Positions 2,996 through 36,696 of a stretch of DNA of 64,000 nt are shown here, in pieces. This DNA comes from a virus (Duplodnaviria > Caudoviricetes): IMG/VR virus record IMGVR_UViG_3300033463_000004, positions 1-64,000 of that record, one strand, 5' to 3'. Under the pieces are notes generated by a model, which was not told the DNA's origin, made no database searches, and worked only from the letters and a program-made list of their open reading frames with translations. Position numbers and translations under genes: made by a program. Every line of letters starts with the position of its first letter. Within the stretch, counting starts at the first letter, position 1.

Positions 2996-3071
2996 GACGA
3001 TACCTCCTTTATTATAGATATTAATTTTGGGTCTACAAAATAAAAACTTATTCATTAGGAGCGTGAATGAT

Positions 3072-3911
3072 ATGAAATTTATTAAACTTGGAAAGATTAT
3101 TGCTGGAGAAGAAATAAAAAAATTTGCAAATTTGTTGCTTGAAAAACATATTCAAAATGATAAATTATTTGAATCACTTTATTTTCCATTGACTATTCGT
3201 CCAGACTCAATGGTCCAGATGTTTTACAGAACATTTTGGACCGATACATATCTTCGTCGTGGTGAGCATACATACCCAGATATTGTCGATATTCATGAAC
3301 ATGATGATTTGTTTAATGAGCTTCCGCCAGAAGATGAAAGTGTCGTATACATGTCAATTTCAGAATGCATCAATTATATTCATATGGCAACACCATCGAC
3401 TTTGCAAGACAAGATTCCAGAAAACATAAACTCGATTGAAAGTATATGGAAGTTGATGCATTTCTTTTTATTTGAGGAAGATAATCCTCAAAGAAAGATG
3501 TATAATATATCGACTTTCTATAGTGTATTTCATATGGAAATATTCGATACAAACTACAAACCTGATTTCAAGAAATTTGCAATGCTTCGCAAAATGATTC
3601 AGACATATGATATTGAAAACTATGGGACGATGCTTGGTATTGTTGATACATCAACACGTTCGATATCAGACATCATGGAAAAAGTACCAGATCAACGAGG
3701 TATGATGTATGGACGTATTCAGATGTCATTTCATGTTGACACAGAAGAAGATTTTCAAATATTATATGATTTTCTAAGATCCAACTTTTTTACGATTAAC
3801 GGTTTACACTGTGAAGATATCGGTTTGTTTGTATCGGCATCAACAGATACGATACAATATGATGTTGCAACATATATTACATCAATTTATTCTCAATTAA
3901 TGAAAAAATAA
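3072..3911 (+). CDS. Hypothetical protein
   Basis: AGGAG SD upstream of MKFIKLG; ends at a terminator. Confidence 0.7.
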   Translation: MKFIKLGKIIAGEEIKKFANLLLEKHIQNDKLFESLYFPLTIRPDSMVQMFYRTFWTDTYLRRGEHTYPDIVDIHEHDDLFNELPPEDESVVYMSISECINYIHMATPSTLQDKIPENINSIESIWKLMHFFLFEEDNPQRKMYNISTFYSVFHMEIFDTNYKPDFKKFAMLRKMIQTYDIENYGTMLGIVDTSTRSISDIMEKVPDQRGMMYGRIQMSFHVDTEEDFQILYDFLRSNFFTINGLHCEDIGLFVSASTDTIQYDVATYITSIYSQLMKK

Positions 3912-3913
3912 AA

Positions 3914-3936
3914 TATGGGGGCTTCATGCCCCCATA
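3914..3936 (+). terminator. Intrinsic terminator
   Basis: tatgggggc-ttcat-gcccccata followed by a T-rich tract. Confidence 0.8.
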
Positions 3937-3957
3937 GAAATTTTTTTATTTTTAAAC

Positions 3958-3969
3958 ACATATATACTT
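3958..3969 (+). promoter_or_regulatory. Early-type phage promoter motif (A[CG]ATATATnnTT), representative copy
   Basis: Recurs at operon starts: 10968, 12571, 16427, 24862, 26898, 36701, 45323, 53665, 55738, 61307 (+) and ~21870, 24827 (-); resembles phiKZ/AR9 early TATATT-type motifs. Confidence 0.65.
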
Positions 3970-3973
3970 TATC

Positions 3974-4140
3974 TGGAATCCGGAGGAAGTATACTTTAGA
4001 TATACAAGTCCACCGCATAAATTTTAAAGATTATATGTAAGAGCCAATAAGCTGTAGATTGGTCGTGTCTCTATGAGTATATGTTTAGTAGCGATAAACA
4101 TCCGACTCATGTAGCGTTTATATAATCTTGAAAGATTCCA
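3974..4140 (+). ncRNA. Multi-branched structured leader RNA / ncRNA candidate
   Basis: Nested stems: 3974-3980/4134-4140, 3981-3993/4001-4015, 4027-4036/4120-4129, 4043-4048/4058-4063, 4073-4078/4105-4110, 4081-4087/4095-4101. Confidence 0.6.
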
Positions 4141-4181
4141 AATGTATCAAATTAATATTAAAAAGAAAGGATGAATAATCT

Positions 4182-5849
4182 ATGCTTGATCCTTCGTTGA
4201 TCATTACGGGGATTGCAGGGATCTGTGTTGCCATCAGTACTATCATTGATAGATTATCTGGTAATACAAATATGGGTTACTATTATACATACCCTTATAC
4301 GTATCCCACATATCAGTATTATCCCCAACAGCAAATGATACAACAACCAATGCAGCAATGCACATATGACTTTTCACGTCGTGCAATTGGCATGCCTGTT
4401 GCTCAGATGTATCAGCCGCAGATGATGCAGCCGATAATGATTCCAATGCAACAACCGGTTCAGTATCAATCAACTTATCCGTGGGCGAGTAATAATCAGG
4501 TTATGAATTACCCGCCGCAATATGTACAAAATTACCCTAATTATCCAATGCAACAGCAAATGGGCGGTTGCTATGTATATCCGAAAGTGTATGATTATGA
4601 TTTCGACAAAAGAAATCGAATGATCACACAGCAGCAACAAATGAATACGATGATGATGGGTAATGGATATAATGGGATGACTGCTGACGCAATGTATGAG
4701 AATGCTATGCGTGAGAACGTGAAACGTGCTTGGCAGAATTGGGATACGAGAAGATATTCCATGCCAATCAATCCTCCTGTTATGCCACAACAAATGATGA
4801 ATGTTCCACAGCCTCAAATGCAACAGCCGATGATGAATCAACCAATGATGAATCAGCCGATGCAACAGCCCCCTGCATGGGCACATAATATGGCTGTAAA
4901 CACAAATCATTATCCTGATATGAGCAGGCGTGATATGGGCCAGCCTGATCAGTATCCTTGGTCGTCTAATAATATGAATAATTATCAGACAAGCGGTTGG
5001 AAACCGTATGACCAATTGAGAGAATGGCAGGCTAAAGAGATGAGAAATGCGCTGACTGATAATGGTGCATTCTATCATACCAATCCGAATGGTGGATTTA
5101 ACCCGTACATGGTTCATCAATCACAAACGCCGTGCACAGATCCAAACTTTCCGGCACTGACAGCTTTAAGTAATACGGGAACTCCGCCAGAACTGAGATT
5201 TGCAAACCCACCAACTGAGTCTGCTTTGGTGGAACATGCAAGACGGCATACAGATCCGTTAGGGCGTTTTTTTAAGGAAGCTCCGGAATCTTTTAACAGT
5301 GGCGAATCAACGAAAACAAATGACGTGATAATCGATGATACAGACTATAGTCATGTTACATTCGATATGCTTCTTCGCAATCAGGCATTGACACATCCGA
5401 AATTGTCTAAAGAGGAATTTGAACGGGTGAAAAAGGAAGTTGAAAATCCTCGTCCATTTGCACCTGGTGAAGCACCTACAATTCACATAGGTGGTCCTCA
5501 GCCTGTTATACCGTTGACACCTGAAGAAGAAAGAGATAAGTATGAGCGAGAATATAAACGGCCACAGATTACGGAGTGGGTTGTTCATCCGGAAAATGAT
5601 CCGGATCCAGAAGTTAGAAAAGACTGGTATAGAAGACATGACAAGTATATCATGAGTTTAGCAGAAACTTCTGCCGAACCTTTAGACGTAAGCGGAGTTT
5701 GGTCAGATGATGACCCAACTGATAATGTATCGACACCAATCGAAACAGACAATTCAATTCAAAACAATTCAGTTCAGACAGAAACAACAGAAGAAGCAGT
5801 TGAATATACACGTGAAACGTGTCCGTATAAAATAACTGCAGATCCATAA
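4182..5849 (+). CDS. Gln/Pro/Met/Tyr-rich low-complexity protein with N-terminal hydrophobic segment
   Basis: N-terminal LIITGIAGICVAISTII; about 250 aa of Q/P/M/Y/N; repeated SRR/TRR and YPW motifs; acidic C-terminus. Confidence 0.8.
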   Translation: MLDPSLIITGIAGICVAISTIIDRLSGNTNMGYYYTYPYTYPTYQYYPQQQMIQQPMQQCTYDFSRRAIGMPVAQMYQPQMMQPIMIPMQQPVQYQSTYPWASNNQVMNYPPQYVQNYPNYPMQQQMGGCYVYPKVYDYDFDKRNRMITQQQQMNTMMMGNGYNGMTADAMYENAMRENVKRAWQNWDTRRYSMPINPPVMPQQMMNVPQPQMQQPMMNQPMMNQPMQQPPAWAHNMAVNTNHYPDMSRRDMGQPDQYPWSSNNMNNYQTSGWKPYDQLREWQAKEMRNALTDNGAFYHTNPNGGFNPYMVHQSQTPCTDPNFPALTALSNTGTPPELRFANPPTESALVEHARRHTDPLGRFFKEAPESFNSGESTKTNDVIIDDTDYSHVTFDMLLRNQALTHPKLSKEEFERVKKEVENPRPFAPGEAPTIHIGGPQPVIPLTPEEERDKYEREYKRPQITEWVVHPENDPDPEVRKDWYRRHDKYIMSLAETSAEPLDVSGVWSDDDPTDNVSTPIETDNSIQNNSVQTETTEEAVEYTRETCPYKITADP

Positions 5850-5937
5850 ACAATATAAAGAGTGACACAATCATTTACATCAATTTGAGTAGAGAGTCAG
5901 GCTCTATTCAAAAATACAGCAAAAGGAGGTTAGATCC

Positions 5938-6321
5938 ATGTCAAATCCTACTGTATCAGCAGTATTCGATGGAGTGAATTCTGTTTGTAATCAAGCAAAT
6001 TCGATCATCGATACAGGTCGAGCATTTGCAAATACTGCAATGTCTGCATTTGATTCTTTGTCAAATATCTCCAGAAGAGATTTCAATTATCAGATGCGAC
6101 CAATGACATATCAGCCGACGACATATCCGTGGGCATCACAGCAATATGGTTCGCCATATGGTCAGCAGCAAGGCATTACTGGTTATCCGGGTATCTCAAA
6201 TCCGAATTATGGAAGACCTGGATATTTCGGTAGCGGTTTCATCAATACCTCAGCATTCTCCCAACCGCAATCGCAATGGAATATTCCGTCATGGGTTGAA
6301 CAGTCTATTTGGGGGTCATAA
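5938..6321 (+). CDS. Small Gln/Tyr/Gly/Pro-rich protein (SRR/YPWA motif)
   Basis: AAGGAGG SD; NISRRDFNY...TYPWASQ. Confidence 0.8.
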   Translation: MSNPTVSAVFDGVNSVCNQANSIIDTGRAFANTAMSAFDSLSNISRRDFNYQMRPMTYQPTTYPWASQQYGSPYGQQQGITGYPGISNPNYGRPGYFGSGFINTSAFSQPQSQWNIPSWVEQSIWGS

Positions 6322-6324
6322 GAA

Positions 6325-6696
6325 ATGATATTCGATCAATTCTGTAAACAAATTGCTTCGAATGAATTGTTAACCGATCCGATCGTTTGTTCAGAAGATG
6401 ATGCCGATGATATTCTCAAGGAGCGCGCACAAGCTCTTTGTGGTATTATGCGTTTGAAAATGAATAAACTTGATCGGATCGAGATTCCATTCATTGAAGA
6501 AAAGCTCAAAGATCTGAATCGAGTTGAACAATTGCTCTCCGAATATAATCAAGGAGAAATTCCGGACTATCTGTTGATGACATTTTCAGAGAAACTCTAT
6601 GGTATTCCATTTAATGAGTTAAATATTGACCAACAATCTGTAATTAAAACGCTGAGTATATACATCTGCGTATCTATTCAGAGTTCTAATAAATAA
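6325..6696 (+). CDS. Hypothetical protein
   Basis: 123-aa ORF in operon. Confidence 0.7.
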   Translation: MIFDQFCKQIASNELLTDPIVCSEDDADDILKERAQALCGIMRLKMNKLDRIEIPFIEEKLKDLNRVEQLLSEYNQGEIPDYLLMTFSEKLYGIPFNELNIDQQSVIKTLSIYICVSIQSSNK

Positions 6697-10952: not shown

Positions 10953-11068
10953 TTTTTTATTTCAGAGAGATATATCATTAAGCAGATTAGAGGGGCATTT
11001 TGCCCCTCTATCTACTTTTTGAAATCTCTGAACCAAAATATACAAATTTGATTACAGGCGGTGATGTT

Positions 11069-12559: not shown

Positions 12560-12646
12560 TTATTTTTCGCACATATATAATTTATTCGATTACGGGTGAC
12601 ACAATGTTACTCCGTGATTGAAAATATTCGAGGAGGTTTACACATC

Positions 12647-35058: not shown

Positions 35059-36503
35059 TGCGAATTGAAAAGACTACAACAGGTGTTATTATCAAAGATC
35101 CAACAAATGAAGTCAAACGGAAATGTTTGCAATATTTCACGCTTCAGAACCCTACTCGTGAATTCTTTGTTTATTCAGGTAATGACCCAGATAACAAACC
35201 AATTCTGGGTCATGAACATGACGTAATCTATATTACGTCAGGATTTTTAAAAATCAATGATCCTGAAATTAAAAAACTCAAAATTGATTCAACCAAACAA
35301 TACTTGACACCAAAACAAATCACGTTGACAATGAATCGAACGCCGCGTTCAAAATTACAAGAAGATTGCATTCGAATGATTACAACTTCAGAAGCTTCAA
35401 AAATTACAATGGAGCTAAAACCTGGAGTCGGCAAAACCTTTATAGCATTATATGGTGCATCAAAACTTGGATTGAAACCTTTGATCGTTGCGCCAACATC
35501 ACTGTTGAAGAATCAATGGATTGATAATATCGTTGAACTCGGTATTGATAAATCCGATATTGCAACAAAGATTTGGGATGCACCCGAAAAGAAAGTTTGT
35601 GTTGTTACAATATCTTCACTTGAAGGTGCTGTTCGTGATGATTGGAATGGGCTTATGAAGACTTTGGATTCAGCAGGTTTTGGAATCAAAGTCATTGACG
35701 AAGCTCATCTTCATCTGAAAGGAATCTTAAAGTTTGATGCATTATGTAATATCAAACATAACTGGTATCTATCAGCAACACTCGGAAGATCTGATCCATC
35801 TGAAGACAGAATCCTAAATCGTGCTTTAGCAGATGCAAAACGATTCATTGGTAATTCTGCATATGAAGAATATCAAAAAGAATATGTCCAAGTATATCTG
35901 CAAGACATTTATTATTTCCCATCATCTAAGCTGTGTAATAAATGTTTCAAGTATGGTTCAAAAGGTTTGATACGTGCTTCATACTATCGTATGTTGATGG
36001 AATACAGGAACGGCCAACCCTTCATCAATAATGTTATCAATGTCATTAAACGTGCAAAAAGCATTATTAATTATGATGGAAAGATTCTTGTTCTTGTTCC
36101 ATTAATCGATATTATCGATAAGATTATTCTTGCAATGAAAGCCGATCCATACTTTAAGAATTATACGTTTGCAGGTGTTGATGGTTCAATGCCATTATCA
36201 AAACGACGTGATGCAATGGAATCAAATTTCATTTTATCAACATCATTGTCAATGGGAACCGGCGTTGACGTATCGAATCTTGGAGTTGTTGTTAATTTTG
36301 ACCAATATTCTTCATCAATTATCGGAGAACAAATCTTCGGACGTTTACGTGACAGAGGAAAAGAGACATACTATATCGACGTTTGTGACCATGTAAAACA
36401 AGCATCAATGCTTGCTCGATGGGGAAAGAAGCGTCGTTTATTGATTCCATATTATCCAGGTGCAAAACGTGACATGAAGAAATTTCCTGTTATATATTGC
36501 TAA
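35058..36503 (+). CDS. SF2 DExH helicase (UvsW-like)
   Basis: PGVGKT, IDEAH, LSAT, GTGVD, QIFGRLR. Confidence 0.88.
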   Translation: MRIEKTTTGVIIKDPTNEVKRKCLQYFTLQNPTREFFVYSGNDPDNKPILGHEHDVIYITSGFLKINDPEIKKLKIDSTKQYLTPKQITLTMNRTPRSKLQEDCIRMITTSEASKITMELKPGVGKTFIALYGASKLGLKPLIVAPTSLLKNQWIDNIVELGIDKSDIATKIWDAPEKKVCVVTISSLEGAVRDDWNGLMKTLDSAGFGIKVIDEAHLHLKGILKFDALCNIKHNWYLSATLGRSDPSEDRILNRALADAKRFIGNSAYEEYQKEYVQVYLQDIYYFPSSKLCNKCFKYGSKGLIRASYYRMLMEYRNGQPFINNVINVIKRAKSIINYDGKILVLVPLIDIIDKIILAMKADPYFKNYTFAGVDGSMPLSKRRDAMESNFILSTSLSMGTGVDVSNLGVVVNFDQYSSSIIGEQIFGRLRDRGKETYYIDVCDHVKQASMLARWGKKRRLLIPYYPGAKRDMKKFPVIYC

Positions 36504-36511
36504 ACGGAATG

Positions 36512-36682
36512 ATAATCCGGAATGTTCCTTCTCCGTTTTCATACAAGGTTTGGCCGCCTTGTTTTCGCCGTAAGCGGGACGGCGATTTGCTGTGTTTTCC
36601 TCCTTGAGAACAGTGCATAATACACCATTCGAAAACATTCCGGATTATTTGATAATTTATGTGGGGGCGAAAGCCCCCACAT
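36512..36682 (+). ncRNA. Structured small RNA candidate A
   Basis: 15-bp terminal stem 36512-36526/36634-36648 enclosing three hairpins; AACG-N6-TA at 36503-36514; GAAA-loop hairpin 36659-36682. Confidence 0.6.
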
Positions 36683-36696
36683 TATCAATATATCAT

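Follow-up and report, generated by a model that had tools for sequence, protein, structure and literature searches.

Stem–loops at the extreme 5′ end of a message, as well as 5′ elements resembling a Shine–Dalgarno (SD) sequence, are established mRNA stabilisers, as exemplified by the ompA and papA leaders of Escherichia coli and the aprE leader of Bacillus subtilis. Work on such elements reportedly includes that of Emory in 1992, Hue in 1995, Agaisse & Lereclus in 1996 and Hambraeus in 2002, with the polypurine 5′ stabiliser of Hue et al. said to originate from phage SP82. With regard to phage transcription, the units read by virion RNA polymerases (vRNAPs) of the AR9/PBS1 and phiKZ type are early and host-independent (PMC5312081). 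The early promoters of AR9, which have been mapped experimentally, comprise a 13-mer followed by six nucleotides of any sequence and then the initiating G, and those of phiKZ-related vRNAPs are in general described as extended elements rich in A and T, with initiation 6 nt further on (PMC5312081). A further point of reference is phage 201phi2-1, in which small RNAs (sRNAs) derived from 5′UTRs arise by premature termination (PMC11512511).

The leader described here lies near the start of a 64-kb stretch of phage DNA (hereafter, the window), which is the first part of a 262,694-bp IMG/VR virus record (37 % G+C). PHROG matches to split RNA polymerase (RNAP) beta subunits, a tail sheath and a topoisomerase identify its source as a jumbo phage, and the nearest relatives of an RNAP beta fragment are the Bacillus phages PBS1 and AR9 at just 29 % identity, so that on its gene content the phage is a jumbo phage with a distant AR9/PBS1 likeness. 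A Pfam search of nine neighbouring proteins returned no family, and no match was returned when the leader and its two flanking genes were compared with GenBank phage DNA and proteins, or when IMG/VR was scanned with single proteins. The product of the gene upstream of the leader has 14 homologues (31–96 % identity), and locus DNA was taken for these together with metagenome loci; the contigs appear to derive from rumen and gut metagenomes, as judged by sample and record names alone. Amongst them, L004 is the leader locus of a sister phage and L003 a contig whose upstream gene product is 96 % identical to that of the window and whose leader is identical over 3974–4140; the source phage's own genome is termed G000 and the sister genome G001. 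The upstream ORF (3027–3911) is listed from a TTG at 3027, but its homologues, at 253–281 aa, begin like MKFIK, so that translation probably starts at the ATG at 3072 instead.

Gene order is kept in all relatives, with a terminator, an AT-rich promoter, a structured leader, an AU-rich linker, GAAAGGAG and an orthologous gene following one another. In the window, where all of these elements lie on the + strand, the intrinsic terminator of the upstream gene (a 9-bp GC-rich stem and a T-run, 3914–3936) has an equivalent in all related loci, and is followed by an AT-rich, early-type promoter at 3940–3969, made up of a T-rich block and then ACACATATATACTT. The folded leader occupies 3974–4140 and gives way to an unstructured AU-rich linker (4141–4164), again with an equivalent in all relatives, and to the SD sequence GAAAGGA (4165–4171), which is located 10 nt before the ATG, is unpaired and free of the leader fold, and is conserved as GAAAGGAG. 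The downstream gene (4182–5849) encodes a protein of 555 aa with an N-terminal membrane anchor and then a Q/P/M/N/Y-rich low-complexity sequence. Its orthologues, of 200–380 aa, follow the leader in every relative, and likewise encode N-terminally anchored, Q/P/Y/N-rich proteins.

The promoter segment recurs elsewhere in the phage's own genome. A first-pass annotation of this DNA had singled out a 12-mer as the motif directly ahead of the leader. The exact 12-mer is not significantly repeated (two matches in the window at ≤1 mismatch, a number equalled in 19 of 100 shuffles). What does recur is a broader AT-rich motif followed by a G at constant spacing, with 17 occurrences in G000 and 13 in G001. 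Scanning with a pattern of an AT-rich block and xATATAT-NN-TT yielded 22 loosely defined sites in G000, 17 of which possess a G five bases on, whilst four of the five non-G sites are without an SD–start combination in range; in G001 all 13 sites have a G at that distance. Sites of this class, in which five nucleotides and the G follow the xATATAT-NN-TT element, include 10985, 12588, 24879, 36722 and 55755 within the window. At the leader itself, the 13-mer ending at 3968 matches the AR9 consensus at 9 of 13 positions when the ATATAT cores are aligned, and has the identical spacing of six nucleotides to a G. The layout is thus that of AR9/PBS1 and phiKZ-type vRNAP early promoters (an AT-rich consensus, approximately 6 nt and a G start), extending to an initial GA(A/U). 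By analogy with AR9, whose RNAP beta fragment is 29 % identical, this places the predicted start at G3975, and transcription should therefore begin with the first base of the closing helix, leaving T3974 probably untranscribed.

The first-pass annotation had described six nested helices and two multiway junctions, closed by TGGAATC/GATTCCA, and both the minimum free energy (MFE) and the centroid folds bear this out, the former containing six helices and two three-way junctions in 3974–4140 and the latter retaining all of them. In the predicted fold, closing helix P1 is formed by 3974–3980 and 4134–4140. It is followed by the P2 arm (3981–4015), consisting of a purine-rich, SD-like tract, GGAGGAAG, a hairpin at 3989–4005 and a pyrimidine-rich return strand. 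The remainder is taken up by the P3 domain (4027–4129), in which the P3 helix (4027–4037 with 4119–4129) encloses hairpin B (4043–4063) and the two-tier hairpin C (4072–4111), the latter with a GUAGCGA loop. The structure stops 41 nt upstream of the ATG at 4182, in agreement with the distance of about 40 nt given previously. Its MFE is −38.2 kcal/mol (z = −2.27; 3 of 200 shuffles as stable), such that the thermodynamic excess of the leader is modest; the comparative evidence for the fold is stronger.

This comparative evidence comes principally from 14 related leaders (L002, L005–L016 and L136, of which L013 and L014 are nearly identical), each a two-tier hairpin of 45–55 nt at the orthologous site. 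These short forms begin 0–2 nt from the predicted +1, with P1 at or next to +1 in 14 of 14, and run from P1 through a purine-rich internal loop on the 5′ side to P2, which carries an almost invariant apical loop with the consensus (A/G)AGAAUCCGCY. In a model-based alignment, P2 is 84.6 % paired, five of its seven pairs change on both sides, and its covariation score exceeds that of all 500 shuffles and of all slid registers. As junction length varies, P1 cannot be aligned in register, and it was therefore tested by swapping partners: P1 5′ strands pair with their own 3′ partner at a mean of −8.2 kcal/mol, and with swapped partners at −5.7 kcal/mol (permutation p = 0.0003, with the close relatives L002 and L005 included in the test). 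Both short-form helices hence show covariation, and the covariation that had been named as a check for homologous loci is indeed present in P1 and P2 of this form. Moreover, in 14 of 14 leaders (12 short, 2 long) the fold of the + strand is the more stable of the two strands.

These observations bear directly on the suggestion that there is no RNA function here at all, and that the locus is a neutral, palindrome-rich stretch of AT-rich spacer or a promoter-proximal element acting at the DNA level. The modest z-scores would suit such a reading, as would the conserved GGAAU at +1, which may reflect a preference in the initially transcribed sequence, given that many G000, G001 and AR9 units start with GAAU or GAUA. 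Covariation in both short-form helices, the uniform + strand bias and the retention of an insertion of ~105 nt with the same topology at near-saturated divergence (see below) all speak against it, and we regard it as very unlikely. Two related origins were also discarded: a coding region or uORF, as all six frames are broken and just promoter DNA is common to L004, and a repeat or MITE, as the genome contains no further copy except that of the promoter segment. The folded leader at 3974–4140 is a real, selected and cis-located RNA structure.

The long form of the leader (~150–165 nt) is found only in the source phage, L003 and L004, and its comparison hence rests on just two independent sequences. 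The window and L004 leaders show ~43 % aligned identity, which is near saturation. When the sequence from +1 as far as the last base ahead of the SD is folded blind, each nonetheless adopts the abstract shape [[][[][]]], which dinucleotide shuffles reach in just 1.0 % and 1.5 % of cases. By tree-edit distance, the two MFE structures lie 74 apart, compared with 133 ± 15 for shuffles, none of 500 being as close in either direction; with coarser representations of structure, 0–1 of 500 and 6 of 500 were as close. Differences between the two are spread across the stems, whilst islands of loop sequence are conserved. In hairpin B the 5′ strand is kept and a single compensatory swap, from C–G to G–C, is observed; in hairpin C both the lower and the upper stem are wholly different around a conserved GUWGCGA loop; and the P3 helix, of 11 bp in the window, is represented in L004 by 6 bp of unrelated sequence. 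The junction nucleotides also differ. The L004 fold shows no excess of stability over shuffles (z −0.9 to −1.4), and a covariance model built from the window sequence alone scores the L004 leader at 9.3 bits, which is not significant (E = 0.3). A MAFFT pairwise alignment placed the helices out of register, and RNAalifold run on it was therefore uninformative.

In relation to the short form, the long form retains the places of P1, the purine tract and a P2-like hairpin, with the P2 arm at 3981–4015 matching in position the purine-rich internal loop and P2, whilst the old apical loop is absent. In the upstream-protein tree, the window and L003 group with L004 (93/90), nested among short-form lineages, and L136 has the short form despite belonging to the same larger clade as the long-form phages. 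By parsimony, therefore, the long form would be a single derived enlargement in the common ancestor of the source phage and L004. It may have come about through insertion of the P3 domain, a two-hairpin unit of ~105 nt that lies after P2 and ahead of the P1 3′ strand, with loss of the old apical loop, and the 167-nt fold would accordingly represent a lineage-specific enlargement of an ancestral 5′-terminal hairpin of ~50 nt.

The downstream proteins differ between the two sets of phages as well. Most short-form phages encode a protein of 200–285 aa (353 aa in L007), ending for the most part with a conserved, Cys-containing motif, SFCKIPSCY...G.W; in the long-leader phages the proteins are of 555 and 379 aa, and do not have this ending. 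Enlargement of the leader and remodelling of the downstream protein thus go together.

As to identity, Rfam 15 at gathering thresholds returned no match in the window or in nine related loci, so that the Rfam/Infernal comparison put forward earlier assigns the leader to no described family; permissive scans gave just terminator-driven hits or noise at E ≥ 0.06, and ARAGORN found no tRNA, tmRNA or tRNA-like genes in the window. A covariance model of the short form detects no copy elsewhere in G000 or G001, both of which are complete genomes, and the element is therefore single-copy and gene-specific. A specific short-form pattern has no matches in IMG/VR and 52 in 185,579 prokaryote genomes, amongst which the short-form model finds no true member; from their sequence context, these 52 appear to be coincidental, in DNA that is unrelated and for the most part GC-rich. 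The leader, in its short and long forms, is a new structured-RNA family, structured 5′ leaders as such being already known.

Its position directly after an early promoter and its multi-junction architecture recall a riboswitch, or an RNA of the put or nut kind that mediates processive antitermination by acting on the phage RNA polymerase. Such a role is, in our estimation, highly improbable. For a riboswitch, junction nucleotides should not be those that vary between the two long forms, and there is no expression platform, since the structure is followed by no terminator and leaves the SD unpaired. An antitermination RNA resembling lambda nut or HK022 put was likewise rejected, on the basis that Rfam provides no match and that no + strand terminator in need of read-through is predicted in 3937–6500.

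The sRNAs of jumbo phages provide a closer parallel. The leader shares with those of 201phi2-1 and phiKZ a conserved, structured 5′UTR location and the property of being recognised by synteny and fold rather than by sequence; unlike them, it is without a following terminator, and there is no sequence relationship. A small RNA released from the 5′UTR, or processed from it, and acting in trans could be envisaged on the precedent of 201phi2-1, and of the 5′UTR sRNA reported upstream of the phiKZ tail gene gp182 (PMC11512511), with the AU-rich linker after P1 serving as a possible endonuclease site. The lack of a terminator downstream of the structure weighs against this, as does the fact that the leader always accompanies the same gene, with the intervening linker and SD conserved, and a search for target complementarity returned nothing convincing that is conserved, the one partial match, to the stem of a late sRNA, showing no covariation in G001. 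Consequently, the processed stand-alone ncRNA offered as one option by the first-pass annotation is unlikely, and we would give an sRNA role little credence. The reading as a cis-regulatory leader after an early-type promoter, offered alongside, fares well, given the AR9-like layout, the conserved site, the covariation and the favoured + strand. For its remaining option, a scaffold to which the downstream disordered protein might bind, the analysis yielded evidence in neither direction.

The late sRNA in question is encoded at 36500–36690 of the window, and both it and its closing stem are well conserved in G001 (~140320–140500). Pairing of the leader 5′ end with this closing stem (~36.5 kb) was treated as coincidence, because the sRNA stem is unchanged in G001 while the leader differs. 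A CUCCUU-containing loop of the same sRNA can pair over 8 bp with GGAGGAAG (3981–3990); any SD would pair with such a loop, and this is therefore not specific evidence. Duplex predictions over the whole length of both RNAs were uninformative.

The GGAGGAAG tract itself invites comparison with the STAB-SD/polypurine stabilisers, such as that of cryIIIA in Bacillus thuringiensis, which similarly place an SD-like tract without a start codon near the 5′ end. Against a Bacillota anti-SD, predicted pairing of the tract (−9.5 kcal/mol) is as strong as that of the gene's own SD (−9.8 kcal/mol), the family mean being −6.1 kcal/mol versus −1.8 kcal/mol for random 10-mers. The tract is weaker in most relatives. 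No start codon follows it, and in both long forms its bases are predicted to lie within helices, so that the case for a STAB-SD is a weak one.

Structure at the 5′ end is not peculiar to this leader. A stem lies within 0–2 nt of +1 at 15 of 22 sites of the promoter class in G000 and at 10 of 13 in G001, as compared with ~44 % of random positions, and the mean MFE of +1 to +50 is −9.8 and −11.1 kcal/mol, respectively, against −6.9 and −8.2 kcal/mol for random 50-mers. The hairpins are gene-specific and are kept between G000 and G001, e.g. in the units at 12588, 92582 and 165509 and their G001 counterparts; compensatory changes between the two genomes are observed within the +1 hairpins of this class. 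Within this setting, the predicted 5′UTR (207 nt) ranks second in length among 17 in G000, and its L004 counterpart (182 nt) ranks first in G001 amongst the 12 units, out of 13 sites, to which a gene could be assigned; this upholds the previous impression that this leader is more elaborate than others. Two further units deserve mention. At 10985–11025 (G001 ~114967), a GC-rich hairpin followed by a U-run forms a terminator-like structure at the extreme 5′ end, which the sister genome also retains and which could act as an attenuator or constitute a very short RNA. Outside of the window, at ~193280 of G000, a long predicted leader extends over 240 nt from +1 to the first SD–start combination (MFE −60 kcal/mol), and is possibly either another elaborate leader or a region in which a small gene is concealed.

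By contrast, the early leaders of AR9 are short (~20–35 nt) and unstructured: the 18 consensus early starts average −3.3 kcal/mol versus −4.1 kcal/mol for controls, and only four have a stem at +1. A general AR9-type trait is thereby rejected. As such, 5′-terminal hairpins are a trait of this rumen/gut clade and not of the polymerase family, which evidently does not require them.

Turning to function, known stabilisers likewise combine a paired 5′ terminus with a strong SD and, in between, an AU-rich linker that is left free, and 5′-end protection is therefore preferred as the primary role. As in the ompA, papA and aprE leaders, a helix lies at or within 1–2 nt of the predicted 5′ end, an unstructured region and then a strong ribosome-binding site follow, and the element is placed in cis on a single message; G3975, the predicted +1, would be the first base of P1. 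Unlike these leaders, the present example is far larger, with 167 nt and two three-way junctions, is transcribed by a phage multisubunit RNAP, and has conserved loops that suggest an extra partner, with stabilisation being a prediction in this case. On balance, we consider that the leader is probably a cis-acting 5′UTR of an early mRNA that sequesters the 5′ end and protects the message, with the involvement of a trans-factor. The AT-rich, vRNAP-type promoter would direct transcription from G3975 of the mRNA for the membrane-anchored, Q/P-rich protein, and the first transcribed bases would pair at once with 4134–4139, holding the 5′ end within a helix. This would shield the mRNA from 5′-end-dependent decay, of the RppH/RNase J1 or RNase E type, with a possible contribution from the SD-like purine tract, whilst the AU-rich linker and strong SD would remain accessible for translation. 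A trans-factor would probably bind the conserved loops and confer gene-specific control.

Stabilisation is not the whole story, as a hairpin that merely protects an end requires neither 167 nt nor an invariant 10-nt loop. Since end protection leaves the near-invariant apical loop of the short forms, and the conserved loops of the P3 domain, unexplained, an additional trans-acting partner is argued for. Taken further, the leader could be a gene-specific operator, through which a phage or host RNA-binding protein, or an RNA, times translation or decay, with 5′ protection being secondary. In its favour, the apical loop is near-invariant whilst the flanking protein of the short forms is just 31–53 % identical to that of the window, the loop islands of the long forms are conserved although the stems are fully different, and gene specificity, together with conservation from G000 to G001, is a property of other early leaders too. 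Nevertheless, no candidate for a binder emerged, the structure includes neither the SD nor the start codon, the invariant loop is lost in the long-form lineage, and the absence of a second copy of the motif in G000 or G001 means that there is no regulon. We thus view a primary operator function as possible but doubtful.

A more speculative proposal, to which we attach only a slight probability, is that every vRNAP transcript in the clade possesses a gene-specific 5′ hairpin serving as an address tag that phage factors read for sorting, timed decay or translation. The 167-nt example would then be an elaborated tag with a partner of its own to recruit, which might be the disordered membrane protein as it emerges from the ribosome, or its kinase network. 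If true, this would couple an mRNA to the assembly site of its own protein.

The leader family is absent from Rfam and is so far confined to uncultured, AR9-like jumbo phages of the rumen and gut. In it, a small 5′ hairpin would have been enlarged to a multi-junction domain with the closing helix still anchored at the predicted +1, and the near-invariant loops may point to an RNA-binding factor. Leaders of this kind could also provide compact, stabilising 5′UTR parts for Bacillota expression systems. Should 5′-end protection prove right, these phages would have solved the survival of early mRNA in a manner different from the short, unstructured leaders of AR9.
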